Shown: piece by piece, positions 46,336 to 61,503 of the stretch
How the letters are laid out: each line of letters opens with the position of its first letter
Numbering within the stretch: position 1 is the stretch's first letter
Assembly (NCBI GenBank): GCA_965223415.1
Contig: OZ245002.1
Coordinates: forward strand, 2,016,001-2,080,000
Reading direction: 5' to 3'
DNA from: Myxococcota bacterium
Lineage (GTDB): Bacteria; Myxococcota_A; UBA9160; UBA6930
Length of the DNA stretch: 64,000 bases
The notes under the pieces: model-generated
The model's input: the letters and a program-made list of their open reading frames with translations, nothing else
Databases searched by the model: none
What the model was told of the DNA's origin: nothing
Made by a program: the position numbers and the translations under genes

Positions 46336-47373
46336 TTACCCGAGCGGCCCCTTCGACGGGCCGGTGCGCCGCTCCGCGGGCCATGGCTGCAGGTCCAGGG
46401 GGCTGCGCACTCCGAAGCCGCCGCGGTTCAGCACGTGGGTGTAGACCATCGTCGTGCTGACACTGCGGTGGCCCAGGAGCTCCTGGACCGTGCGGATATC
46501 GTGGCCGCTCTCGAGGAGGTGAGTCGCGAAGCTGTGGCGGAGGGTGTGGCAGCTGACACGCTTGGCGAGCCCCGCGCGCTGCGCCGCATTCTTCACGGCG
46601 CGCTGTACCGGCGCTTCGCTGAGATGGTGCCGTCGGTCGCCGCCGCCACGGGGATCTCGGGAGCGGCGAGCCGCAGGAAAGACCCAGAACCACGTCCAGC
46701 TCCGCGCGGCCTTCGGGAACTTTCGCGCCAATGCGTCGGGCAGGAACACGCCGGGGCGCCCGTCCGCGACGTCGCGTTCGCGGAGGACGCGCGCTGCTTC
46801 GAGCTGGGCACGCAACGGCTCCACCAGCGCATCGGGCAGCATCGTCCTGCGATCGCGGCGGCCCTTGCCGTCCCTCACCAGGACCTCGCGGCGAGCGAAG
46901 TCCAGATCCTTCACGCGGAGACGCAGTGCCTCGAGCAGCCTGAGGCCCGAGCCGTAGAGCAACCCAGCGACGAGGGAGGAAGTGCCCGTGAGCTCCGCCA
47001 GCAGCGCCTGCGTCTCGCTGACGCTGAGGACGACCGGGAGGCGGCGCGGCTTGCGGGCGCGAACCGGAGCGAGGCTGCCGAGATCACGCCCCAGGACCTC
47101 GCGGTAGAGGAACAGCAGGGCGCCAAGCGCCTGGTTCTGCGTGGACGGCGCCACGTCTTGCTCGACGGCGAGCCACGTGAGGAACGCCGACACCTCGGCG
47201 GCACCCATGTCCGCGGGGTGACGCGTCCCCTGATGGAGGATGAAGCGCCGGATCCACCCGACGTACGCCTCTTCCGTCCGGAGGCTGTAGCCGCGAACCC
47301 GGATCGCGTCCCGAACCTGATCGAGCAACCGCGGCGGCTGCCCTTCTCCCCGTTCCGGGGAGCGTTTCGGCAT
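46336..47373 (-). CDS. intI: Integron integrase (tyrosine recombinase)
   Basis: [21 protein letters not shown], IntI-specific insertion [32 protein letters not shown]; divergent cassette array. Confidence 0.97.
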
Positions 47374-47639
47374 GGTGTGGAACGACCCTGTCGCCCGGCC
47401 CGACGGGAGGGCCGCGGCGCGGGTGGGGTGGTCAATCGAGGCTACCAGCTTCGCGGGGCGGGGCCAGCGGGGGAGTCCCGAGAGCGGGCTCCGCCACGAG
47501 ACGCCGCCGCCTGTCGCACGAATTCGTTTCGAGAGACCCAGCTCGCCCGAATTGACTTCGAGCGCTCAGTATTCCCGAGGGGGCCGCAGCGAGACCCCGA
47601 GCGCGTCCAGTTCGGTGTAGACTCACTAGGGAGAATTGG

Positions 47640-47667
47640 TTCGGTGAGACCTACTATCTAGTTGGGC
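47640..47667 (+). other. attI site
   Basis: CCTACTATCTAG^TTGGGC; GTTGGGCGGCAGG is the reverse complement of CCTGCCGCCCAAC at the end of cassette 1. Confidence 0.8.
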
Positions 47668-47680
47668 GGCAGGGAGTTCG

Positions 47681-48406
47681 ATGAAGCGAGACTTCATCAT
47701 TTCCGAGATCAAGCGCACAGCCTCCGACAACGACGGGGTCCCTCTCGGCCAGCGCGCCTTCGCCACCACAACGGGGATCCGCAGGCACGACTGGTATGGG
47801 CGTTTCTGGCCGAACTGGAGCGCCGCGCTCTCAGACGCCGGTTTCGAGCCCAACGTCTGGCAGGACAAGATTCCCGAAGACCTCCTGCTCGAGAAACTCG
47901 TCGAACTCATCTCTGAACTCGACAAATTCCCCACCGACGCGGAGCTTCGGCAAAAACGACGCGAGAATCCGAGCTTTCCAAGCCACAGCACCATGCATCG
48001 GCTCGGTCCCAGAGCCGAAAGGGCTCGGCGAATCATCGACTACTGCTCGACCGACGAGGACCTCTCCACGGTTGTAGCTATCTGCACCTCCATCGCTGAG
48101 CAAGCAGTCCCGCCGGCCAATGTGCCCGCCGACCCCAGCGAAGCTGAAGAGTTCGGAACCGTCTACCTCATCAAATCCGGACGTCATTACAAAGTCGGAA
48201 GAACCAATGCATTTGGGCGTCGCGAGCGCGAAATCGAGCTCCAGCTTCCCGATAAGGCGCAGACGGTTCATACCATCACCACGGACGATCCTGTCGGAAT
48301 CGAAGCCTACTGGCACCGCCGATTCGCCGATCGTCGCAAGAACGGAGAGTGGTTCGAGCTGTCGCCCGAAGACATTCGAGCCTTCAAGAGGCGAACCTTC
48401 ATGTAG
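47681..48406 (+). CDS. Cassette 1: GIY-YIG-like (T5orf172/MUG113-type) nuclease with N-terminal helical repeats
   Basis: GTVYLIKSGRHYKVGRT, IEAYWHRRF..RKNGEWFEL; WPNWSAALSDAG repeat; more AT-rich codons than the core genes. Confidence 0.8.
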   Translation: MKRDFIISEIKRTASDNDGVPLGQRAFATTTGIRRHDWYGRFWPNWSAALSDAGFEPNVWQDKIPEDLLLEKLVELISELDKFPTDAELRQKRRENPSFPSHSTMHRLGPRAERARRIIDYCSTDEDLSTVVAICTSIAEQAVPPANVPADPSEAEEFGTVYLIKSGRHYKVGRTNAFGRREREIELQLPDKAQTVHTITTDDPVGIEAYWHRRFADRRKNGEWFELSPEDIRAFKRRTFM

Positions 48407-48414
48407 CGCCTGCC

Positions 48415-48550
48415 GCCCAACAAGGCGCTGCAGCTGACGAGCCACAGCTCGTTCCAATCGACCCGTGGTAGTGTTTGGCATCGAATTTGGAAGCTTCGAG
48501 CGGGCTGCAGAGGCGCTGTGGCTCGCAGCTGAGCGCCAGGTCCGTTAGCC
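48415..48550 (+). other. attC site 1 (R' end interrupted by IS1380 and IS110)
   Basis: R'' GCCCAAC; arms GCGCT(G)CAGCTG(A)CGAGCCACAGC / GCTGTGGCTCGCAGCTGAGCGC with extrahelical bases; R' GTTAG at 48544. Confidence 0.92.
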
Positions 48551-50073
48551 CTGATCCGGCATTGCGAGGTGTAGGGAAAGCCCGGAATTGAAAGTGGCTC
48601 CGTCGGTGTGCTTGATGGAAGTGCCAACCACCATCATGCCTCCGAGGAGCCACATTCGTGAAGCTAAGCAGACACCGGATTCGAGCCCGCGTCAAGGGCG
48701 AATTGTCGATCGCCTTCACGGATGAGGCGCTGACGAGCTACGGCGGGCTGGAGCTGTTCCGGCGCTTCTTCGACCGCTTTTGGGCAGAGCGCCTGAAAGC
48801 GGCCTTTGCGGATCGGGCGTTCGACTCGGACTACGGATCCTTCCGCTGCATGCTGGTGGTGGTGGGGATGCTGCTGCTGGGAGGGAGCCGTCTCTCGCAT
48901 GTCCGGGTGCTCGATCGGGATCCGTTGTTTCGGCGGTTCGTCCGATTGCAGCGGCTTCCGGACGAGCGGACCCTGGCGAGGAACCTGAAGGAGCTGACGT
49001 CGGGCTACCGCGATCGTCTGAACGAACTGCTGCGGGACATGGCCTATGGAACCCACACAGGGCTCGGCTTGGAGCGGGCCACGATCGAGCTGGACGGCAC
49101 CGTGCTTCGGACGGGCGAGTACGTGGACGGCGCCGAGCGCGGCTTCAACCCACATCACCCGAAGGACCCGTCCTACTACCCGCTGACGGCGCACCTGGCG
49201 CAGACGAGCCAGCTGCTCGGCGTATGGAACCGGCCGGGCAATGTGAACGATGCGGTGGGCGCTGCGGAGAAGCTGGCCTTTCTCCTGGGCGACGCGAAGC
49301 GGCGCCTCGATCGGGTCCCGATCGAGGTGCGGCTCGATGGCGCCTTCTTCCAGAAGGCCGTTCTCGAGGTTCTCACGGCCTCTCGCGTGGAGTACGCCCT
49401 CAAGGTCCCCATGTGGCGCTGGCTCGGCGTGCGTGAGAAGATCGCCGCCCGGAAGCGTTGGCACCGCGTCAACGCGAGCGTCGACGCCTTCTCCGTCGTC
49501 CACCGGATCCCACAGTGGAAGCGCTGCGAGCGGATCGTGGTGTTCCGCAAGAAGGTCTCCGGGCGAAGCGCGAAGAACTTCCAGCTCGACCTCTTCACCC
49601 CGGACGATGGCCACTACGAGTACTCGATGGTCGCGACGAACAAGCGGACCAGCGAGGCCGCCGTCTGGGCCTTCATGGCCGGACGCGGCGGCCACGAGAA
49701 GACGCTGGCCGAGCTCAAACAGCACCTGGCGTTCGCCACCATCCCGACCCAGGACTGGGACGCCAACAGCAACTGGCAGCTGCTCAGTGCCCTGACCCAC
49801 AACCTGGTGCGGGACTTCCAAGCCACGCTTGGCCTGCCAGAGCGACCCAACGGCCGAAAGCGGACCGCCCGGCTCCGCTTCCCCTCGCTCCGCACGCTCC
49901 GCTTCGAGCTGATCCAGCTCCCTGGCCGCATCGCTCGGCCTGCCGGACGCGCTTCGCTCCGAATCGCCGCGTCCTCGCGCAGCCGCTCCACCATCCGGGC
50001 CGCCGAGACCGCGCTCGCCGCGTGAGCCCGCCAGACCTACGCTCGGATCCGTGATCTCAATGCCGGATCAGGG
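48549..50073 (+). mobile_element. IS1380-family insertion sequence
   Basis: 16-bp TIR CCCTGATCCGGCATTG / CAATGCCGGATCAGGG; 4-bp TSD TTAG. Confidence 0.92.
48658..50025 (+). CDS. IS1380-family DDE transposase
   Basis: LTSYGGL, ELDGT, NRPGN, VRLDGAF, GRGGHEKTLAELK. Confidence 0.9.
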   Translation: MKLSRHRIRARVKGELSIAFTDEALTSYGGLELFRRFFDRFWAERLKAAFADRAFDSDYGSFRCMLVVVGMLLLGGSRLSHVRVLDRDPLFRRFVRLQRLPDERTLARNLKELTSGYRDRLNELLRDMAYGTHTGLGLERATIELDGTVLRTGEYVDGAERGFNPHHPKDPSYYPLTAHLAQTSQLLGVWNRPGNVNDAVGAAEKLAFLLGDAKRRLDRVPIEVRLDGAFFQKAVLEVLTASRVEYALKVPMWRWLGVREKIAARKRWHRVNASVDAFSVVHRIPQWKRCERIVVFRKKVSGRSAKNFQLDLFTPDDGHYEYSMVATNKRTSEAAVWAFMAGRGGHEKTLAELKQHLAFATIPTQDWDANSNWQLLSALTHNLVRDFQATLGLPERPNGRKRTARLRFPSLRTLRFELIQLPGRIARPAGRASLRIAASSRSRSTIRAAETALAA

Positions 50074-50092
50074 TTAGATACTCCCTTCGTCG

Positions 50093-51088
50093 TCAACCCT
50101 TCGTGGCGAAGAATTTCTCGCCAAGGAAGTCCTGGTCGTGGCGGAGCATGCCGTAGATGGCGTGGAGCAGCTTCCGCATGACGGCGACGAGTGCTTGCAT
50201 CTTGGTTTTGCCCTTGGAGAGCAGCTTCTCGTAGAAGGCCTTCACGTTCGGTTCCCAGCGTGCAGCGACCATCGCAGGAAGAAAGAGTGCGCGGCGAAGG
50301 TGGGCGTTGCCGGTCTTGCTGATGCGAGCTGGCTTGTGCACAGAGGTGCCCGATTGAAACTGTCGGGGGTCGAGGCCCGCATGCGCGACCCATTGCCGGG
50401 TCGTCATGTCCTTGGGCAAGGTGCCTAGCTCGGCGAGCAACTGGATGCCGGCTGCGTCGGCGATACCCTTGATCGATGTGATGTGGCCGAAGTCTCTGGC
50501 GAGCTCGGGGCTCTGCTCGATCACCTTCAACGCTTGCTTGCGCAGCCGATCGATTCGCCCCTCCAGGAGCTCGATCAGTTCGCGGATGTCTTGCTTCACG
50601 AACTCACTGAGCTCCTCGCTCTGGTCGTTGGCATGGAGCCGGTTCTTCTCCTGCGTCACGGTCTTGCTCAGAGCCTCCACGCGGCGGGAGAGGGCCCGTA
50701 CCTCCAGAATTCGGGGGTCCGGCGGAGTCCAGGCGGAAAACTCCATGCGCATTCCGAACTCGAGAATCGTTTCCGCATCGAGCGCATCCGTCTTGGAGCG
50801 TTGAAGCGATGCCTTGGCGAACGCGGCAATGGCCCGCGGGTTCGCCACCATCACCTGGGACGCCTTCGCACGGTGAAGCGCGAACGCGAGGTCGAGGCCG
50901 TACACCCCGGTCGATTCCAGGACGACGCGCGCCGTCGCATTCCCCTTCGTGGCCCACCGAATCAGCCTCTGGTGGCCCTTGGGATCGTTCGCAAAGACCA
51001 GCCCGCCCTCGCGAGTTCCGTTCCGGTCGATGGCGACGACGAGCTCCTTCGCCCCGACGTCCACGCCCACGTAATGACACTTCTTCAA
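50093..51088 (-). CDS. IS110 DEDD recombinase
   Basis: VGVDVG, VLESTG, KTDALDA, FQSGTS, ISKTGNAHLRRAL, AVMRKL; TTG start after GGAGGAG. Confidence 0.95.
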   Translation of the reverse strand: MKKCHYVGVDVGAKELVVAIDRNGTREGGLVFANDPKGHQRLIRWATKGNATARVVLESTGVYGLDLAFALHRAKASQVMVANPRAIAAFAKASLQRSKTDALDAETILEFGMRMEFSAWTPPDPRILEVRALSRRVEALSKTVTQEKNRLHANDQSEELSEFVKQDIRELIELLEGRIDRLRKQALKVIEQSPELARDFGHITSIKGIADAAGIQLLAELGTLPKDMTTRQWVAHAGLDPRQFQSGTSVHKPARISKTGNAHLRRALFLPAMVAARWEPNVKAFYEKLLSKGKTKMQALVAVMRKLLHAIYGMLRHDQDFLGEKFFATKG

Positions 51089-51099
51089 GGTCTCTCCTC

Positions 51100-51300
51100 C
51101 CCGTGATAAGCTGGGACCCGGGTCTCCCGACCCTGCACATTCACCTACGGACCTTGTAGACGCAGGCTCTCGGGCCTCGGATACTCCACGGCATGGGTGA
51201 CGAGGGCGGGAGGCCCATCTAACGGACAAGCTCTCTGGCTTCAGGCAGCGACGGCCTTTCCCGGGAACCCATCTCGGAGTCTCACTCAGGCCCGAAGAGC
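51100..51300 (-). ncRNA. Predicted bridge RNA (boundaries approximate)
   Basis: Contains guides matching target (GCUGCCU, GUCCGUUAG) and donor (GGAGUAUC, UACAAG), each pair separated by a short hairpin. Confidence 0.85.
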
Positions 51301-51324
51301 CTGCTCAGAGGTACAAGGCGGCTC

Positions 51325-51711
51325 ATGCGGAGTTCGTTGCTTGCACTTGCGGTTCTGCTGACGGCTTGTAGCGATCCTTGGGAGTGCAAACTCGACCTCC
51401 GAGAACAGCTATCGGAGATCTCCACAACGGAGGTGCGTCTCCGCGACGTCACCGATTTCGATTGGACCACGGTGAGCGTCTTCGGCCCTTACACTCCCGG
51501 CGAGGAGATTAGGAAGCTCGGCGTCACCTATGAACCATCTCCCCTGGGGTTCGATCACGTACCTGAGTCTGCTGCCGAGCTCGTCTTCCTAAGCGAGGAT
51601 CAGCCGGTCTGTCGGCATACATGGTTTCACCATGACTCACGATACAGCTTCCGTGCCTGGGAAGAGTTCGATCCAACAGATCCCGTCTTGGTTCCCTATC
51701 GAACTCCCTAA
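51325..51711 (+). CDS. Cassette 2: hypothetical lipoprotein
   Basis: Lipobox LTAC, DFDWTTVSVFGPY; cassette ends GTTAGGCGGC (reconstructed) / GCCGCCTAAC are complementary. Confidence 0.8.
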   Translation: MRSSLLALAVLLTACSDPWECKLDLREQLSEISTTEVRLRDVTDFDWTTVSVFGPYTPGEEIRKLGVTYEPSPLGFDHVPESAAELVFLSEDQPVCRHTWFHHDSRYSFRAWEEFDPTDPVLVPYRTP

Positions 51712-52343
51712 GCATCTGAACGATCCGGCTGATGGTTGACAGAAGTCCAGGTACATCCTTTACACGCCTGTGATCGTTCCGGTTCGCTGATCGTACCTTC
51801 CGAGGAGGGTGCGGTAGTAGATGATGTTCCAGAGCCCGTCGCCGATCTCTTCGAGTCCGATGGTCTCGCCGGCCAGGGCATGGGAGAGAAACGGCAGCCG
51901 GGGCTGCATGCGGAAGGTGCCGGCGTTGTTGACGCGTCGCACCTCGAGGTGGGCCGGATACTCGGGCTCGGGGAGACTCTCTGGGTAGCTGCGCTTGGCC
52001 GGGCTCCAGAGCTCGTCCGGGACCTGATCGCCGATGCCTTCGTGGGGCCGCTCGGCGTTGTAGCGGTCGCGAAAGCGGTCGAAGCGCCGCTGCTGGGATC
52101 GTCGGGTGGCTGCCGGAGGCCGAGCCGTCTCCTTCTTCAGCTCGCGGTGCATCCGTTCGTGAGCTCCGTTCTCCTGCGGGCTCGCGGGTCGGATCCGTTG
52201 GTGGACGATGCCGAGCTTCATCCACCAGACGTTCAGCTCGCAGAGGCCGTGGATGCCGGTTGTCGCAGGACGTGATATTCGAGGGCTAAGAGGACACGTA
52301 GATTTGCGCACCTCCTGTTGAGCCGCTGCGCGGCACGTTCCCC

Positions 52344-53630
52344 GTGAGGGAGGGGGGCGTGGGGCAGCGGCGACTGAGGCAGGAGGAAGTGATGACGATC
52401 GAAGTGCTGCACGAGCGGGGGTGCTCGAACCGGGAGATCGCCCGCCAGCTGGGGATCCGGGAGAGCGCGGTGCGCTACCGGCTGAAGCGGCTGGCGGAGG
52501 GGGCGCGAGACGGCCGGAGCGGGAAGCCCTTCCTGGCCGAGGCGGTCCACGAGGTGATCGCGGAGTGGCTGGAGGCGAGCTCGGGAGGCCGTGGCGTGAA
52601 CCTGCAGGAGCTTCACGAGTTCCTGGTGGAGGAGCACGGGTACACGGGGAGCTCCAAGAGCGTGCAGCGGTACGTGCGGGCCCGGTTCCCGAGACCGAAG
52701 GTGCGGAGCCGGCGTCGGGTGGAGACACCGCCCGGGGCGCAGGGTCAGGTGGACTGGGGCGAGTTTCCGGGCGTGCGGATCGGGGGCCAGGAGGTGGACC
52801 TGCATGCCTTCCACCTGGTGCTCTCGCACTCGCGGCGAGAAGCGGTGGTGTGGTCGGAGCGGGCGGACACGCTGGCGTGGCTGGACGTGCACAACCGGGC
52901 CTTCGAGCGGCTGGGCGGGGTGCCGGCGGTGCTGCGGGTCGACAACGTGAAGACAGCGGTGGCGAAGGGGGCGGGGCCATGGGGGACGGTGAACCCGGCT
53001 TACGCGAGCTATGCCGGGGCCCTTCGCTTCCACGTGGACGCCACCCGTCCCCGCCAGCCGCAGGAGAAGGGGAAGGTGGAGCGTCGGATCCTGGGGCACC
53101 GGCGGGGCTTCGATCCGCGTCGGCGGGAGCACGAGAGCCTGGAGTCGCTGCAAGCGTGGACGGACGGCCAGGTGGCGCGCTCGAGCCACCGGCGGCAGTG
53201 CCCGGCGACGGGCACGACGGTCTTCCAGGCGTGGGAGGCGGAGAAGCCCCATCTCGGGGCCCTGCCCGAGCGGCTTCCCGAGCCCTTCGACCTGGCCGTG
53301 ATGCGACGTGTCGGGCGCGACGCCACGGTGCGCTTCGAGGGGCGTACCTACAGCGTCCCCTTCCGCTTCGTCGAGCAGAGCGTCGAGGTGCGCGGCTGCG
53401 CCCGGCAGGTGCAGGTCTGGGCCGAGGGCTCGGTGGTGGCCGCGCACCCGCGCCACACGCGAAGCCGCCTGCTGCTGGACCCGAGCCACTACGAGGGGCC
53501 GAGCACGGAGGGGGTGGAGGCGCCCGTACCGCTCGGGCGCATGGGTCGACGCCTCCAGGAGCTGTGGGCGATGGAGCCGGAGCAGCGGCCGATCGACCTC
53601 TATGCCGATCTGGCGGAGGTGGCGCGATGA
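52344..53630 (+). CDS. istA: IS21 transposase IstA
   Basis: ETPPGAQGQVDWG, VDNVKT, EKGKVER, YSVP. Confidence 0.92.
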   Translation: MREGGVGQRRLRQEEVMTIEVLHERGCSNREIARQLGIRESAVRYRLKRLAEGARDGRSGKPFLAEAVHEVIAEWLEASSGGRGVNLQELHEFLVEEHGYTGSSKSVQRYVRARFPRPKVRSRRRVETPPGAQGQVDWGEFPGVRIGGQEVDLHAFHLVLSHSRREAVVWSERADTLAWLDVHNRAFERLGGVPAVLRVDNVKTAVAKGAGPWGTVNPAYASYAGALRFHVDATRPRQPQEKGKVERRILGHRRGFDPRRREHESLESLQAWTDGQVARSSHRRQCPATGTTVFQAWEAEKPHLGALPERLPEPFDLAVMRRVGRDATVRFEGRTYSVPFRFVEQSVEVRGCARQVQVWAEGSVVAAHPRHTRSRLLLDPSHYEGPSTEGVEAPVPLGRMGRRLQELWAMEPEQRPIDLYADLAEVAR

Positions 53631-54427
53631 CGGCGGGAAACCCGGTGCCCAAGAAGGGCGGCAAGGTGGATCTCGACCCGACCCGCGAGCGGCTCGTGCG
53701 CCTCGGCCTCCATCACGCGGCCGAGCACATCGGCGAGGAGCTGGCCCGAGCGACCAAGGACGACCTCGTGCCCCACCGCTTCCTCGACCTGCTGCTCGAG
53801 GCCGAGCTGCAGCACCGCGAGGAGCGGAGGATGAAGACCTCGCTCCGTCTCTCGGGCCTTCCCACGGGGCAGACCCTCGGCAACTTCGACTTCGCCTTCC
53901 AGCCGAGTGTGGAGCGGAGCCGGATCGAGACGCTGGGCACCTGCGCGTGGATCCGGGCCAAGGAGAGTCTGCTGATCCAGGGTCCGCCGGGAGTGGGCAA
54001 GACCCACCTGGCGGTGGCCCTGGGGGTGCGGGCCGTGGAGAACGGCTTCTCCGTGGCCTTCCATCGCCTCGAGGACCTGCTGGCGGCCCTCAAGCGCGAC
54101 GCCGAGATCAGCCCGCAACGGCTGCGGCGGCGCAAGCACATGAACGTGGCGCTCCTCGTCATCGACGAGGTCGGCTTCGAGCCCATGACGCGCCAGGAGG
54201 CGAGCCTCTTCTTCCGGCTCGTCTCCTACCGCTATGGGAGGGGCTCGATCCTGATCACCACGAACAAGGGCATCGCCGACTGGCCCGAGGTGCTGGCGGG
54301 CGACGAGGTGCTGGCCACCGCCATCCTCGATCGCCTCCTCCACCACAGCCAGGTGCTCAACATCTCGGGGCGGAGCTACCGGCTCCGCGAGCTCGAGCAG
54401 GCCGCGGGGCAAAGCGCCCAGCGTTGA
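53627..54427 (+). CDS. istB: IS21 helper ATPase IstB
   Basis: FDFAFQP, GPPGVGKT, IDEVG, ILDRLLHH, GRSYR. Confidence 0.93.
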   Translation: MTAGNPVPKKGGKVDLDPTRERLVRLGLHHAAEHIGEELARATKDDLVPHRFLDLLLEAELQHREERRMKTSLRLSGLPTGQTLGNFDFAFQPSVERSRIETLGTCAWIRAKESLLIQGPPGVGKTHLAVALGVRAVENGFSVAFHRLEDLLAALKRDAEISPQRLRRRKHMNVALLVIDEVGFEPMTRQEASLFFRLVSYRYGRGSILITTNKGIADWPEVLAGDEVLATAILDRLLHHSQVLNISGRSYRLRELEQAAGQSAQR

Positions 54428-55339
54428 GGCCCCAGAGGGCGGCCTGACGGCCGTGCTCTCCTTCGGAGAGCGGAAGAGAAGAAGGAAGAACCGAACATCA
54501 ACCCAGGGGGGTGCGCAAAACTAGCCGTCCTCTTAGCGCGCAAGAGATGACGTCCCTCGACACCGGTCGAGGCGAAGGGCGCACCGTTGTCGCTGCGGAT
54601 CGCCTCGGGAAGCCCGACCTCGCGGAACAGCCGTCGGAAGACGGGCTTCGCATGCTCCGTCCTCACGGAGGGCAGCCCTCGGCACACGAGGAGCTTCCGG
54701 CTGAAGTGGTCGGTCACCGTGAGCGGGTAGCAGTAGACGCCTGTCGAGGGACGTCATCTCTTGTGCGAAACTGGCCCTTGAAGTCGACGGGCCAGACCTC
54801 GTTCGGCCGCTCCGTCTGGAGCGGGGCGGCACCCGGATGGTCCCACTTCCGCCGCCGGCGGTTCTTGCGCAGCTTCCCGTGGCGATCGAGGATCGCGTTG
54901 ATCGTGCTCTGGGCCGGCAGCGCTCTTCGCGGGTGCCGCCGGGCCAGCACCAGGCGAAGCTTCTTCGCCCCCCAGCCGTACTGGGCCCGAAGCGCCAGGA
55001 CCTCCCGCTCCACGGCCTCGGGCGTCCGATGCGGGCAGCTCCTGGGCCTTCGCGAGCGCTCCTCGAGGCCCTCGCCCGCCTCGGCCCGCTCGAGCCACTT
55101 GTAGCCCGTGGGCCGGCTGACCCCGTAGCGCTCGCAGAGCTCCTTCATCCCCCACTGGCCGCTCGCATGATCGGCCACGAAGGCCTTCCGCTGTTCCGTC
55201 CGATTCGTTTGCATCCAAGGCATCCCTGGGTGTAAACGATGTACCCGGACTTCTGTAAACCATGTCCCCGGACCGTACCGTCCGCCGCCTAACCAGCGGC
55301 TGCAGCTGACCCGTTTAGGGAGTGTCAACTCCAATGATC

Positions 55340-55550
55340 GCGAAGCACGTGTGGGTCTTGGTGGTGTCCTCCAACGGAATCGGCTTGCGTCCCTGCGGGT
55401 TCGGGTTCAGTCCAAACGCGTTGTCGGCCTCGTGGGCTCAATGAGGGGTTCGGGGCGACGGTGGTGAATCGGGGCCAAGGGCTCATGGGCCGCAGTCAGC
55501 TGCCCGCCTACCGTCTTCGTTGGAACACAAGCGAGAAGGGGTCCTGGGGG
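55340..55550 (-). ncRNA. Predicted seek/bridge RNA of the IS1111-like element (also ~59920-60130)
   Basis: Contains GCAGCUGAC, identical to the attC sequence immediately at the insertion point. Confidence 0.65.
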
Positions 55551-55557
55551 AGCGGGG

Positions 55558-56607
55558 CTACGCCATGCCAAGGCACCTCCGGAGATCGAAGGCCTCGCCG
55601 CGGGTGAGCGTGACCCAGACGCTGACGAGGAGTCTGCGAGCCAAGGCCATGCGGACCTTGTTCTTGTGGACGCGGGTCCGCATCGTCTTCGCCCAGGCAC
55701 GAACCAACGGGTCGTCCTTCATCAGGCGAACCGCCCATTGGCTGACGATCCAGCGGAGCTCGGCCTGGCCTTGGCGGGTCATGCGGCCGTGGTGGGCGTG
55801 GTCGGCTGACTGGTTCACCTTGGGGGTGAAGCCGGCGAAGGCCGAGACCGCACGGGGGCCTCGGAATCGGTGCGGGTCGCCGATCTCGGCGAGCAGCGTG
55901 GCAGCCGATTGCGTCCCGATGCTCGGGAGCTCCTGCTCGAGGGCCTGGACGTCGGGATCCTCTCGCCCGATCCGTCGGATCTCCCGATCGAGAGCCAGCA
56001 CCTGGCCCTGCAGGCTATCGAGCACCTGGAGCAGGGCCTTGAAGGCGGTCTGCATCTCCAGGGTCGGCAGGGTGACGGTGCGGAGCTTCTCCCGGCTCGG
56101 CTTGGTATAGAGCGCGCTCGTGGGAGCGGGAATCCGGTAGGCGTTCAGGAAGCCCCGGAGCTGGTTCACGGCCTGTTGGCGCATCTGGACGAGGCGGTGG
56201 CGGACCCGAAGGAGCTTCCTCCTCCCGTACTCCTCGTCGCTCGGGTAGTAGGTCGTTGCCACCCGATCCAGATCACCGAGCCAGAGCCGGCGTGCAATCT
56301 CGGCTGCATCTCGCCGGTCCGTCTTCTTGCCGAGCTTCTTCAGGTCGAGCTTGCGCGGATCACAGACCAGAACGTCGAGCTGCGCCTCTCGGCAGGCGTT
56401 GACGAACCACCGGTTGAGGCCCAACGCCTCGACGGCTACGCGGCAATGGGGTCCGAAGAACTTCAGCCGCTCCACGACCCCGAGGCCCTGTTCAAGGCTC
56501 TCGGAGCGGATCCTCTCCTCGGCGATCTTCTCACCCCGCGCATCCAGCACGCAGATCTGGATCACGGTGCGATGCAAGTCGATCCCAGCGAAGTACTCTG
56601 TCGTCAT
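55558..56607 (-). CDS. IS110/IS1111 DEDD recombinase
   Basis: GIDLH, VEALG, KTDRRDA, NQSAD, ALARRL; same 349-aa protein as 60139-61188. Confidence 0.92.
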   Translation of the reverse strand: MTTEYFAGIDLHRTVIQICVLDARGEKIAEERIRSESLEQGLGVVERLKFFGPHCRVAVEALGLNRWFVNACREAQLDVLVCDPRKLDLKKLGKKTDRRDAAEIARRLWLGDLDRVATTYYPSDEEYGRRKLLRVRHRLVQMRQQAVNQLRGFLNAYRIPAPTSALYTKPSREKLRTVTLPTLEMQTAFKALLQVLDSLQGQVLALDREIRRIGREDPDVQALEQELPSIGTQSAATLLAEIGDPHRFRGPRAVSAFAGFTPKVNQSADHAHHGRMTRQGQAELRWIVSQWAVRLMKDDPLVRAWAKTMRTRVHKNKVRMALARRLLVSVWVTLTRGEAFDLRRCLGMA

Positions 56608-56765
56608 GGTCAGTCTCCTTGGGGAGTGTTTGTTGGAACACAGCCAAGGTGGCTGTTCCTCGGTGGACACCCAAAACCGGCCATAGAAGGACGTCTGAAA
56701 AGCGGCCATAGGGGCTGACGCCCAGGACGTTGACGACGGCGAGGGACCTGCGATCCCCCGCCGCC

Positions 56766-58355
56766 ATGGCGAACCTTCTGGGCAACGAGAAACGCGAGCA
56801 GATTCTGGCACTTGGCCGCCTCGGCTGGTCGCTTCGGCGGATCGAGGAGGCGACGGGCGTGCGCCGGGAGACGGCGAGCCGTTACCTCCGGGCCGCGGGG
56901 ATCGCGGTGCGATCTCCTGGTCGCTGGGGGCACGGGGCCCCAAACCCGGCCATAGAGGCGTCCACCGACTCGAAGGCCCCGGCAAAAGCGGCCAAAGAGG
57001 CGTCCACCGATCCGGCCTGGCCGCCGATGCCGGGCCGGAGCCCCCAGGCCAGCGCCTGCGAGCCCTACCGCGAGTGGATCGAGGCGGGCGTGCGCCAGGG
57101 CCGGACGGCGATGGCGATCTGGCAGGACCTAGTCGATGACCACGGCTTCGCCTTCAGCTATGCGAGTGTGAAGCGCTTCGTGGCGAAGCAGCGAGCCGCG
57201 GCGCCGCGCGAGGCGCACCCGGTGATCGAGACGGCACCGGGAGAAGAGGGCCAGGTCGACTACGGCGACGGGCCGATGGTGCGGCATCCCGGGTCGGGGA
57301 AGTACCGGCGCACGAGGCTGTTCGTCTTCACCCTGGGCTACAGCCGCAAGTGCGTTCGGCTGCTCGTGTGGAAGTCGAGCAGCCAGGTCTGGTCGGAGCT
57401 GCACGAGAAGGCCTTCCGCCGGCTGGGCGGTGCACCGCGCACCGTCGTCCTCGACAACCTCAAGGAGGGCGTTCTCAAGCCCGACGTCTACGACCCCGCG
57501 CTCAACCCCCTCTACCGCGATGTGCTCGCCCACTACGGCGTGACGGCGCTTCCGTGCCGGGTGCGCCACCCCGATCGCAAGGGGAAGGTCGAGTCCGGGG
57601 TGCGCCACGCGCAGCAGAAGGTCCGCGGGATGCGCTTCGAGTCGCTCGAGCAGGCCCAGGCCTACCTCGACCGCTGGGAGCGCCGATGGGCCGACACCCG
57701 CATCCACGGCACGACCAAGCGCCAGGTGGCGGCGATGTACGAAGAGGAGAAGCCGCACCTGCTCGGGCTTCCCATCGAGCCCTTCCGCTACTACCAGCAC
57801 GGCGAGCGCACGGTGCACCTCGACGGGGCCATCGAGGTGGAGGGGGCCTACTACCACGCGCCGCCGGGCTGGCTGGGGCGGCGGGTGGCCGTCCAATGGG
57901 ACGGGCTGCGGGTGCGGATGCTCGATCTGCAGACGGGGGAGCTGCTGCGCGAGCACGTCCGCCAGAGGCGGGGGCGCCGCAGGATGCGGGAGGAGGACCG
58001 CCCGAAGCGGACGCCGGCCACGACCCTCCAGCTGCTCGCGCGGGCCCGGCGCGCCGGCGTCCACGTGGGCGAGGTGTGTGAGGCGATCCATCGCCTGGAC
58101 GGCGAGCCCGGGGTGCGTCGCATCCTGGGCGTGCTCTCCCTGTGCAAGCGCCACGGCATCCCTCGCGTCGACGATGCCTGCGCCACCGCCCTGGCCCTCG
58201 AGCTGCCCACCTACGCGTTCGTCAAGCGCTACCTGGAGCGTCAGCCCGAGCTGCCGCTCTCGCTCAAGCAGGTGGACCCGCTCATCCGCCAGCTCACCCA
58301 CTACCGCGATCTCATCGATCGCCGCACCGAGGAGACCTCTCGTGAATCTGACTGA
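56766..58355 (+). CDS. istA: IS21 transposase IstA
   Basis: ETAPGEEGQVDYG, LDNLKEG, DRKGKVESG, RIHGTT. Confidence 0.92.
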   Translation: MANLLGNEKREQILALGRLGWSLRRIEEATGVRRETASRYLRAAGIAVRSPGRWGHGAPNPAIEASTDSKAPAKAAKEASTDPAWPPMPGRSPQASACEPYREWIEAGVRQGRTAMAIWQDLVDDHGFAFSYASVKRFVAKQRAAAPREAHPVIETAPGEEGQVDYGDGPMVRHPGSGKYRRTRLFVFTLGYSRKCVRLLVWKSSSQVWSELHEKAFRRLGGAPRTVVLDNLKEGVLKPDVYDPALNPLYRDVLAHYGVTALPCRVRHPDRKGKVESGVRHAQQKVRGMRFESLEQAQAYLDRWERRWADTRIHGTTKRQVAAMYEEEKPHLLGLPIEPFRYYQHGERTVHLDGAIEVEGAYYHAPPGWLGRRVAVQWDGLRVRMLDLQTGELLREHVRQRRGRRRMREEDRPKRTPATTLQLLARARRAGVHVGEVCEAIHRLDGEPGVRRILGVLSLCKRHGIPRVDDACATALALELPTYAFVKRYLERQPELPLSLKQVDPLIRQLTHYRDLIDRRTEETSRESD

Positions 58356-59103
58356 ACTCGATCCCGCACTGCGCAAGCTCCGGCTCTCGGGCATGGCCGA
58401 GCATCTGGAGATGCGGCTCCTCGAAGCCCAGAAGGGCGAGTGGGCGGCCATCGACCTGCTCTCGGCGCTCGTCCAGGACGAGCTCGAGCGCCGGCAGGAC
58501 CGACTGCTGGCCCGGCGCATCAAGCAGGCCCGCTTCCGCGACGCCAACCGGACCCTCAACGGCTTCGACTTCCGCTTCAATACGAAGATCGATCGCGCCC
58601 TGGTCTTCGAGCTCGCCACGGGCCGCTTCCTCGAGCAAGCCGAGGACGCTGTCTTCCTCGGCCCGCCGGGCACGGGCAAGAGCCATCTCGCCCAGGCGAT
58701 CGGCCTCGCCGTCATCCACCAGGGCCATCGCGTCGCCTACCGCGAGGTCCACGTCCTCCTCGAGGAACTCGCTGATGCGACCCTCGACGGCACCCGCAAG
58801 GAGTACCTGGCCGAGATCGCGAGAGTGCCGCTGCTCATCCTCGACGACCTCGGCATGCGCAAGCTCCCCACCACGGCCGCCGAGGACCTCCTCGAGCTGA
58901 TCATGCGCCGCTACGAGCGCACCAGCACCCTCGTCACCTCGAACCGACCCGTCGACGACTGGGGCCGGCTCCTCGGCGACACGGCAGCCGTCACCGCCAT
59001 GCTCGACCGCCTCCTCCACCACGGCCACCTGCTCAAGTGCGGACCCCGCAGCTGGCGCACCAAGAAGACCACCGCCTTGCCGAAGGAGGCCCCGGCGCGG
59101 TAG
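58342..59103 (+). CDS. istB: IS21 helper ATPase IstB
   Basis: FDFRFN, GPPGTGKS, LDDLG, MLDRLLHH, PRSWR. Confidence 0.93.
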   Translation: MNLTELDPALRKLRLSGMAEHLEMRLLEAQKGEWAAIDLLSALVQDELERRQDRLLARRIKQARFRDANRTLNGFDFRFNTKIDRALVFELATGRFLEQAEDAVFLGPPGTGKSHLAQAIGLAVIHQGHRVAYREVHVLLEELADATLDGTRKEYLAEIARVPLLILDDLGMRKLPTTAAEDLLELIMRRYERTSTLVTSNRPVDDWGRLLGDTAAVTAMLDRLLHHGHLLKCGPRSWRTKKTTALPKEAPAR

Positions 59104-59318
59104 AACCCCTCTGTCCTGGGCGCGGCCCTTTGGCCGCCTTTGAGACGTCCACCTTTGGCCGGTTTTCAGACGTCCACCGAGGGCTGTTCTCCAAGGAGCT
59201 GACCTCCCTATACCCTCCGGGCACCCGCGCGTTCCAACCGGGGCGTGGTACCCTTAGGGTTCCACTCAGGCGCCTCAGCGAGCCTCGGGGCCGGCCCGGC
59301 AGCTGAGCCGCCTGTCCG

Positions 59319-59540
59319 TTAGGCGGCGTTGGGCTTCCAGCGCATGGATGGCCGCTTCTTCGTGCGAGCGCACTCGCCGAGATAGAGATTGATCAGTGTT
59401 TGGTACGGGATGTCCGTCTCTTCCGACAGCTCACGGAAGTACGCGAGCGTCTCCTCGTCCAGACGAATTGTGATCTGCTTCTTCAGTCGCCTGGCGTACG
59501 GGTTCCTCTTTCCCTTCGAGAAGTCGTAGTTCTTTCTCAT
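59319..59540 (-). CDS. brnA: Cassette 3: BrnA-family antitoxin
   Basis: MRKNYDFSKG, KKQITIRLD, PYQTLINLYL. Confidence 0.88.
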   Translation of the reverse strand: MRKNYDFSKGKRNPYARRLKKQITIRLDEETLAYFRELSEETDIPYQTLINLYLGECARTKKRPSMRWKPNAA

Positions 59541-59827
59541 CGCTTCCACCGCCTCTCGTAGTCTCGTCTCTCGGCCCTGTTGGCGCGCCGCGCCGAGATG
59601 ACGCGAATCACGTGGTCTTCCTCTCGGTAGCAGTGGCAAACCACCAGGGCCCGGAGTGCAGCCGAAAGCCCAATCATCACGAAGCGGTCCTCGGCTTCAT
59701 CCGGGTCCTCGATCAAGATCGCAGCTTCGTCGTAGAAGACCGTCCGCGCTTCCTCGAACGAAACACCGTGTTTCTTCTGATTGGCCTTGTCCTTCTTCGG
59801 GTCCCAGTCGAAGTCGATATCGGCCAT
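59537..59827 (-). CDS. brnT: Cassette 3: BrnT-family toxin
   Basis: FDWDPKKDKANQKKHGVSFEEA, EDRF, IRVISARRA. Confidence 0.92.
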   Translation of the reverse strand: MADIDFDWDPKKDKANQKKHGVSFEEARTVFYDEAAILIEDPDEAEDRFVMIGLSAALRALVVCHCYREEDHVIRVISARRANRAERRDYERRWKR

Positions 59828-59863: not shown

Positions 59864-59892
59864 CGCCGCCTAACCAGCGGCTGCAGCTGACC

Positions 59893-61266
59893 CGTTTAGG
59901 GAGTGTCAACTCCAATGATCGCGAAGCACGTGTGGGTCTTGGTGGTGTCCTCCAACGGAATCGGCTTGCGTCCCTGCGGGTTCGGGTTCAGTCCAAACGC
60001 GTTGTCGGCCTCGTGGGCTCAATGAGGGGTTCGGGGCGACGGTGGTGAATCGGGGCCAAGGGCTCATGGGCCGCAGTCAGCTGCCCGCCTACCGTCTTCG
60101 TTGGAACACAAGCGAGAAGGGGTCCTGGGGGAGCGGGGCTACGCCATGCCAAGGCACCTCCGGAGATCGAAGGCCTCGCCGCGGGTGAGCGTGACCCAGA
60201 CGCTGACGAGGAGTCTGCGAGCCAAGGCCATGCGGACCTTGTTCTTGTGGACGCGGGTCCGCATCGTCTTCGCCCAGGCACGAACCAACGGGTCGTCCTT
60301 CATCAGGCGAACCGCCCATTGGCTGACGATCCAGCGGAGCTCGGCCTGGCCTTGGCGGGTCATGCGGCCGTGGTGGGCGTGGTCGGCTGACTGGTTCACC
60401 TTGGGGGTGAAGCCGGCGAAGGCCGAGACCGCACGGGGGCCTCGGAATCGGTGCGGGTCGCCGATCTCGGCGAGCAGCGTGGCAGCCGATTGCGTCCCGA
60501 TGCTCGGGAGCTCCTGCTCGAGGGCCTGGACGTCGGGATCCTCTCGCCCGATCCGTCGGATCTCCCGATCGAGAGCCAGCACCTGGCCCTGCAGGCTATC
60601 GAGCACCTGGAGCAGGGCCTTGAAGGCGGTCTGCATCTCCAGGGTCGGCAGGGTGACGGTGCGGAGCTTCTCCCGGCTCGGCTTGGTATAGAGCGCGCTC
60701 GTGGGAGCGGGAATCCGGTAGGCGTTCAGGAAGCCCCGGAGCTGGTTCACGGCCTGTTGGCGCATCTGGACGAGGCGGTGGCGGACCCGAAGGAGCTTCC
60801 TCCTCCCGTACTCCTCGTCGCTCGGGTAGTAGGTCGTTGCCACCCGATCCAGATCACCGAGCCAGAGCCGGCGTGCAATCTCGGCTGCATCTCGCCGGTC
60901 CGTCTTCTTGCCGAGCTTCTTCAGGTCGAGCTTGCGCGGATCACAGACCAGAACGTCGAGCTGCGCCTCTCGGCAGGCGTTGACGAACCACCGGTTGAGG
61001 CCCAACGCCTCGACGGCTACGCGGCAATGGGGTCCGAAGAACTTCAGCCGCTCCACGACCCCGAGGCCCTGTTCAAGGCTCTCGGAGCGGATCCTCTCCT
61101 CGGCGATCTTCTCACCCCGCGCATCCAGCACGCAGATCTGGATCACGGTGCGATGCAAGTCGATCCCAGCGAAGTACTCTGTCGTCATGGTCAGTCTCCT
61201 TGGGGAGTGTTTGTTGGAACACAGCCAAGGTGGCTGTTCTCCAAGGAGCTGACCTCCCTATACCCT
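59893..61266 (-). mobile_element. IS1111-like element, copy 2 (intact, 1374 bp)
   Basis: Appears identical to copy 1 without the IS21; same insertion point in attC. Confidence 0.92.
60139..61188 (-). CDS. IS110/IS1111 DEDD recombinase
   Basis: Same protein as 55558-56607. Confidence 0.92.
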   Translation of the reverse strand: MTTEYFAGIDLHRTVIQICVLDARGEKIAEERIRSESLEQGLGVVERLKFFGPHCRVAVEALGLNRWFVNACREAQLDVLVCDPRKLDLKKLGKKTDRRDAAEIARRLWLGDLDRVATTYYPSDEEYGRRKLLRVRHRLVQMRQQAVNQLRGFLNAYRIPAPTSALYTKPSREKLRTVTLPTLEMQTAFKALLQVLDSLQGQVLALDREIRRIGREDPDVQALEQELPSIGTQSAATLLAEIGDPHRFRGPRAVSAFAGFTPKVNQSADHAHHGRMTRQGQAELRWIVSQWAVRLMKDDPLVRAWAKTMRTRVHKNKVRMALARRLLVSVWVTLTRGEAFDLRRCLGMA

Positions 61267-61503
61267 CCGGGGAACCGCCCCTTCCAATCGGGCCATGGTA
61301 CCCTGGGGTTCCCATGGCGCGCTCTCGCCATCCGACAGGTGTCGGTTCTTCTGGCTCTTCACGGCGTCTCCGTGGCCTGGGGTTGGCGGTCAGCGCTGTC
61401 GGCTGCGGCGGAAGCGCGAGCGGCTCTCGTAGAGCCATGCAGCACGCCCGTTGGGCAGCATGACCCTCCCTGGCACCAAGCCAAGCACTACTGGGAACCA
61501 GCT

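Follow-up and report, generated by a model that had tools for sequence, protein, structure and literature searches.

An IS621-like IS110-group element with a predicted bridge RNA matching the R' box of integron attC sites in a Myxococcota genome

Analysis of an integron cassette array in a Myxococcota genome (assembly GCA_965223415.1; the window is the whole stretch analysed, 64,000 nt of contig OZ245002.1, positions 2,016,001 to 2,080,000) revealed an insertion sequence lying within the R' box of an attC site, with a predicted RNA upstream of its recombinase gene whose guides match that box. Judged from its sequence, the element is intact, recently multiplied and of the IS621-like RNA-guided kind. 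We put at about 0.9 the probability of the joint reading that it is an active or recently active IS110-group insertion sequence moving by the bridge mechanism of IS621, and that its bridge-RNA-guided insertion is aimed at attC R'.

The element occupies 50078..51317 on the minus strand of the window (1240 nt, counted with one CT core). Six copies in the genome were 100% identical over these 1240 nt and diverged exactly at the ends, and an independently assembled contig from a public sequencing run (possibly of the source sample) spanned exactly 50074-51317 at a depth about 6 to 7 times that of the flanks; with six identical copies and this contig, the boundaries rest on more than the window locus. 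An earlier note on this DNA had set the span at 50078..51324, which holds as far as 51317, but 51318..51324 (plus strand) is target DNA, namely the left target arm made up of the remainder of the original R' box and the 5' end of cassette 2. The right end (50078..50096, minus strand) comprises the left donor arm GGAGTAT (50084-50078) and a -35-like TTGACG (50096-50091), and the left end (51311..51317, minus strand) the CT core and the right donor arm TGTAC. Comparison of the ends by eye, rather than with a repeat-finder, gave no terminal inverted repeats. A non-coding stretch of about 230 nt precedes the recombinase gene and 15 nt follow its stop codon. The adjoining IS1380-family element (48549..50073, plus strand, NF033539) lies in the junction TTAG, duplicated at 50074-50077; its eight identical copies in the genome have 4-bp duplications, which read TTAG for the window copy and CTAG for the other seven. 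This element presumably arrived after the IS110-group element, since in the reverse order it would have removed most of the right target arm. Recomputation with the IS1380 element and its TTAG duplication removed gave the target GAGCCGC-CT-AACGGAC and the circle junction GGAGTAT-CT-TGTACC, in agreement with the earlier note, and the resemblance noted there to the IS621 donor was borne out in the left arm, where five of seven bases are identical (GGAGTAT against ACAGTAT).

The recombinase (50093..51088, minus strand, 331 aa) matched PF01548 and PF02371, and NF033542 above its cut-off. Pfam and residue alignment showed the DEDD RuvC-like domain and the Tnp domain with catalytic serine that characterise the IS110 group: D10, E58, D101, D104, S246 and G247 were invariant in 52 aligned sequences (from 120 homologues listed) and have as IS621 counterparts D11, E60, D102, D105, S241 and G242, as given in the account of PMC11208158. 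The only relatives with solved structures were ISCro4 and IS621, both matching over the full length (E 1e-46 to 1e-49), so that domains, catalytic set and structural relatives agree on an IS110-group DEDD recombinase, as first proposed. Two plasmid records encoded relatives at 45-50% identity, and no relative was present in the viral contigs searched.

The genomic setting is an integron with a single integrase gene found by tblastn, intI (46336..47373, minus strand; TIGR02249, 450 bits against a cut-off of 265). A probable attI R box, GTTGGGC (47661..47667, plus strand), suggested by its complementarity to R'' of attC1, starts cassette 1, whose ORF (47681..48406, plus strand) encodes a MUG113/T5orf172 domain (Pfam). 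The target site, attC1 (48415..48548, plus strand), has R'' at 48415-48421, L'' at 48427-48434, L' at 48528-48534 and the GTTAG of R' at 48544-48548, with pairing of the L and R boxes and a bottom-strand fold at z -4.58; an R''-L''-L'-R' order, a bottom-strand hairpin and a cassette array with intI were thus all found. The right target arm (48540-48548) lies within attC1, and the ORF of cassette 2 (51325..51711, plus strand, 128 aa, without Pfam match) begins directly beyond the left one. The L'-R' spacer of attC1 is long at 9 nt (8-9 nt in the attC sites of the window, 48528-48548, and of many relatives), the usual length being 5-6 nt, and the right target guide reads into these spacer bases. 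The element sits within the R' box, antisense to the cassettes. The integrase crosses over after the first base of GTTRRRY (PMC8876359), and the element core corresponds to positions 4-5; the proposal that the cassette junction itself is targeted therefore stands for entry into the R' box but not for the crossover point, which lies 5' of the core. With the crossover there, the element forms part of the next cassette, at its 5' end. Before the arrival of IS1380, the donor end had restored a consensus R' box, GTTAGAT.

The predicted bridge RNA (51128..51300, minus strand, ends approximate, drawn from the alignment) presents a target-binding loop followed by a donor-binding loop. All four guide motifs named in the earlier note were found, all on the minus strand: GCUGCCU (51249-51243) in the left target guide (51243..51251); GUCCGUUAG (51227-51219), the right target guide, followed by the handshake AU at 51218-51217 (together 51217..51227); GGAGUAUC, the left donor guide (51180..51187); and UACAAG (51158-51153), the right donor guide, followed by the handshake GU at 51152-51151 (together 51151..51158). 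Their claimed pairing with the substrates was complete for the right target guide (9/9), but the left donor guide matched only 8 of 9 positions. The IS621-type layout with a CT core was upheld in the copies and relatives. The handshake AU lies opposite donor AT in 66/73 loci, and GU opposite target GC in the window element; both pairs are identical to those of wild-type IS621 (A81/U82 and G166/U167; PMC11208158). In 75/87 loci the spacing between TTGAC and the core is the same, with a weak -10 in the window element, and this conserved spacing fits the junction promoter described for IS621. Neither a circle junction nor an empty-site joint was seen in contigs of four sequencing runs, a form of data that drops rare forms.

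Folding of the RNA had been suggested as a check, and on the single window sequence it failed: the fold was no better than shuffles (z -1.2), the left donor guide was buried by pairing in the ensemble, and opening all guides cost 10 kcal/mol. RNAalifold recovered the closing stem and both inner hairpins and missed the outer donor stem. Of 76 RNA regions that could be parsed, 59 were aligned after removal of near-duplicates, of those with long insertions and of a single misparse; on these, a two-loop structure drawn by hand had 96.9% of its cells paired, against 29-52% in slid controls, with compensatory change on both sides in 13 of 26 pairs. The two internal loops closed by conserved stems are thus features of the alignment-drawn structure, absent from the single-sequence fold. 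Rfam gave no matches at E up to 1 within 47400-52000.

Three of the six identical copies lie within attC R' boxes (in the window and in arrays at ~2.53 and ~2.78 Mb, no intI being found near the latter two) and three at partly matching non-attC sites, intergenic as judged by eye, so that targeting of attC R' holds for half of the copies while the specificity is loose. Guide scores out of 14 were 11.5, 12.5 and 12.5 for the attC targets and 11, 7.5 and 5.5 for the others, the copies at 7.5 and 5.5 having poor left arms; in IS621, one-armed matches at off-target sites, mainly of the donor arm, have likewise been described (bioRxiv 10.64898/2026.08.31.748434). The probability of at least 3 of 6 insertions in 5 given sites was ~9e-15 against a background of all CT sites, and 5e-4 for the same event over the 165 best-matching sites. 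A perfect right arm occurs at eight sites outside the element's RNA gene, five attC ends (GTCCGTTAG) and three others; three of the five attC ends are occupied, and the two remaining attC ends and all three others are empty. None of eight R'' half-sites was occupied, small numbers in any case, though several offer the same left arm and AAC; this is in line with a long right guide choosing R'. The top-scoring free target of the genome is the unoccupied attC R' box at 59314..59328 (plus strand) of the window. Two further R' boxes of the genome (G000 in our set) are marked by relics, an 11-nt left-end scar at 2531421 and a deleted paralogue at 2528872-2529270, which has a related RNA gene with a different right guide and has lost most of its recombinase up to the attC L''. 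The off-array copy at 4166327-4167566 lies exactly between two genes, which we take to be panB and panC, and its core extends over the first gene's stop codon.

Relatives of 46-86% identity provided 111 loci, of which 94 were kept after removal of four own copies, three duplicates and ten distant or fragmentary loci; the retained set includes one off-array copy of the window element and some near-duplicates. The earlier note had proposed comparing the flanks of relatives with their guides, and covariation exceeded permutation for both (0/5000 permutations in each case, kinship ignored): the right guide paired with the right flank at 5.49 of 7 positions against 3.69 permuted (69 loci), and the left guide at 5.23 against 4.15 (64 loci). 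With one locus per distinct guide the values were 5.41 against 3.01 (34) on the right and 5.27 against 4.03 (43) on the left. In the parsing of guides, two things were set in advance, namely the right guide's first base and, at the right junction, AT-CT. Right-guide positions 1-4 beyond the core paired in 63 to 68 of 69 loci and position 5 in 49 with 9 wobbles; positions 6 and 7 paired weakly across the family (16 and 19 Watson-Crick pairs of 69).

A rule-based attC test of the 87 readable right flanks called 19 full attC sites, 9 with the L' motif only, 21 with AAC only and 38 with none, whereas among all 404 CTAAC sites of the genome, real attC sites included, 10 were full and 25 had the L' motif only. 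Inspection by eye marked L076 as doubtful and L049, L059, L072 and L096 as missed. The extra base was located in the far arm of the attC, which is what entry at R' predicts. For guides with a GTTAG end and a flank of 200 nt or more, a second test passed 13/27. When genomes of the class were searched at the DNA level for the RNA gene, 33/225 had it; 15 of the 31 loci examined were new with a readable right flank, all beginning CTAACG, and 10/15 were full attC sites, including all three copies in one genome (G450), in a set biased to similar guides. An intI gene was present in the short fetched flanks of one relative only (L011).

These data bear on the proposal that the guide is not adapted to attC, but matches a common GC-rich motif, with copies surviving in arrays as safe places. 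Three of the six copies are intergenic elsewhere, arrays also collect IS1380, IS21-like and IS481-like elements, and guides of the GTTAG type need 12 changes on the tree, all of which would suit it; against it, the right guide is complementary at 9/9 positions to attC spacer plus GTTAG, five of the eight such sites outside the element are attC, relatives down to ~53% identity keep the same register, and variation in the guides goes with variation in attC, GTTAT-type boxes having GCAT left guides. We regard this proposal as improbable and prefer guidance aimed at R'.

The GCAT left-guide subgroup (L009, L046, L156, L158), which hits GTTAT-type R' boxes, keeps the target core AT at the left junction and the donor core CT at the right in 4/4 two-ended loci, as if only the top-strand product had been fixed; the parser is blind to a right AT. 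Guides of the attC type, present in 47 of 80 rows, are scattered on the sequence tree among retargeted relatives rather than forming one clade, and need those 12 changes on a quick tree; a single clade of them was rejected (AU test p 4e-6, on the quick tree, the group having been defined once a first tree had been seen). The window element falls in a well-supported 26-row group that is mostly of the attC type, with retargeted members such as L032 and L033. Close relatives (83-86%; L032:1700-2720, L033, L047 and L155) have GATAG right guides; in L032 and L033 the insertion is within an IS1595-family element, in its end repeat, which is similar to the L'-R' half of attC. Among other retargeted loci, the right flank of L086 is at a TGCTACC repeat beside a tRNA-like gene, and the flanks of L092 belong to a repeat that includes GCTGCAGCTGAC, similar to the L'' box of an attC.

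Recognition of the folded single-stranded attC hairpin by the protein, as by the integrase, with the RNA only setting the register, would account for most attC-type insertions adjoining an intact hairpin. The off-array copies at guide-matching sites not called attC, and the close relatives whose guides have changed and which occupy different targets (for instance the IS1595 terminal repeat) argue against such hairpin recognition, which we consider very unlikely; with half of the copies at non-attC sites, recognition appears to be by sequence rather than by the attC hairpin, in keeping with the guided reading.

The closest known systems are IS621 and ISCro4/IS622 (PMC11208160, PMC11208158), which share with the window element the domain order, the DEDD residues plus serine, an upstream RNA with target loop then donor loop, the CT core, the handshakes AU and GU, and a -35 box in the right end. 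Compared with IS621, the protein is distant, the RNA scaffold differs in sequence, the target here is the attC R' box, and the right target guide naturally pairs with ~5 to 7 bases beyond the core, against 2 in IS621. The IS1111-attC elements (ISKpn4, ISPst6, ISPa21, ISPa25; PMC11187229) are likewise attC-homing, antisense and moved by an RNA-guided DEDD recombinase, whereas their RNA is downstream, they have subterminal repeats, and they insert near the attC 5' end, splitting the hairpin; the window element goes into R', on the 3' side, so keeping the L''-L' hairpin intact, and regenerates GTTRRRY. Group IIC-attC introns (PMC3001079) are also mobile, attC-specialised and antisense to cassettes, but are retroelements that, like IS1111-attC members, insert near the attC 5' end, separating a gene from its attC.

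An IS1111-type element is present in the same genome, encoding a protein of 349 aa that is 26% identical over 155 residues to the IS621-like recombinase. Its copies in the window lie at ~59892-61270 and at 55311-56660, the latter split by an element that we take to be IS21-like, and further copies are at G000 2534635-2536032 and 2774306-2778004. All four adjoin attC L'' directly, and have inverted repeats near their ends and a downstream non-coding region; this region contains GCAGCTGAC, the L'' sequence, which is likely to be a guide. Two attC sites carry both the IS1111-type and the IS110-group element. The downstream RNA region and subterminal inverted repeats of IS1111-attC elements are present in the copy at ~59892-61270, and the IS110-group element has neither these nor a 5'-end insertion. 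The separateness of the two solutions, put forward in the earlier note, is thus seen directly within one genome. That the window element has been given the wrong label and belongs to the IS1111-attC members treated in the founding descriptions (reportedly by Tetu and Holmes in 2008 and by Post and Hall in 2009), has in its favour that NCBIfam assigns both elements the same model. The non-coding region upstream, the left guide 5' of the right guide, the insertion at the attC 3' end and the closest structures (ISCro4 and IS621) speak against mislabelling, as do IS1111-attC elements described near the attC 5' end with a downstream RNA, a form that the second element of the array takes; we give this possibility hardly any weight beside the IS621-like assignment.

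RNA-guided attC targeting has been described for the IS1111 members ISKpn4, ISPst6 and ISPa25 (PMC11187229), and the bridge mechanism is also known already; the IS621-like branch at R' appears undescribed in the papers searched. No IS110-group element at R' was found in the literature searched, which included passages of PMC11208160, PMC11089894, PMC11616780, PMC9229058 and bioRxiv 10.64898/2026.10.21.760802 and covered few subscription journals, with ISfinder and the founding IS1111-attC papers outside its scope; within the same limits, only IS1111-type and intron cases of attC targeting were found. In the supplements of Durrant 2024, file 4 holds RNA rows with the scaffold of the window element and a GTTCGTTAG right guide, which are unannotated orthologues, and in file 5 target_seq1529, 2459 and 3248 look like attC R' bottom strands. 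Rows that match target_seq 2459 and 3248 differ from these in both scaffold and donor, pointing to a second lineage. In files 4 and 5 of PMC11208160, this second scaffold, with its different donor, has GTGCGTTAG right guides and attC-like targets, and its end would not restore GTTRRRY. Integrons are not mentioned in the six supplementary files of Durrant 2024 that were searched; relatives and attC-like targets are held there unlabelled, so the data are public and the integron link appears unstated.

A circle, a transcript, recombination and survival of attC function are inferred. By analogy with IS621, the ends of the element would join in a circle, creating a promoter, and the bridge RNA would be transcribed and taken up by four recombinase subunits as a tetramer. 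Pairing would then bring the left guide to the arm on the cassette side, and the right guide to GTT and the spacer bases 5' of it, followed by strand exchange across the CT core. Thanks to its extension, the right guide would probably distinguish R' from R'', at which the same left arm and AAC are available. The element would come to lie 3' of the integrase crossover, on the 5' end of the next cassette, its own end rebuilding R' as GTTAGAT.

It is conceivable, though we hold it doubtful, that a widespread branch of IS621-like elements acts as a cassette hitch-hiker: through entry 3' of the crossover and a donor end that rebuilds GTTRRRY, it would leave attC usable, join the next cassette and be moved both by its own recombinase and by the integrase. 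The same donor end is found in relatives that do not target attC, all three occupied attC sites in the genome have also been hit by another IS, and no element directly behind attI was present among the loci examined. Evolution of the donor end towards restoring R' was rejected as an explanation, since relatives at other targets share the same end. If hitch-hiking were true, attC would offer three niches, one used by introns, one by IS1111 on the 5' side and one by IS621-like elements at R', and there would have been many gains or losses of R' guides via few-base changes.

RNA-guided attC targeting, described for the IS1111 group, is extended by these findings to the IS621-like group and to another position, the cassette junction, at which the recombination site may survive an insertion. 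PMC11616780 notes how little experiments have revealed about the effect of such elements on integron function, and this effect becomes testable. In the family, moreover, guides reprogrammed by nature (to attC R', GTTAT variants, the IS1595 end and other repeats) are combined with a donor that stays the same; the naturally long right guide may be useful for the study of bridge-RNA specificity, and the orthologues for genome engineering.

Cassette 2 seems to have lost its attC, and the region beyond it (window 51740-59190) is riddled with nested IS elements, presumably IS481-like and IS21-like. Further along the array, a BrnT/BrnA toxin-antitoxin cassette lies in antisense orientation at window 59319-59827.
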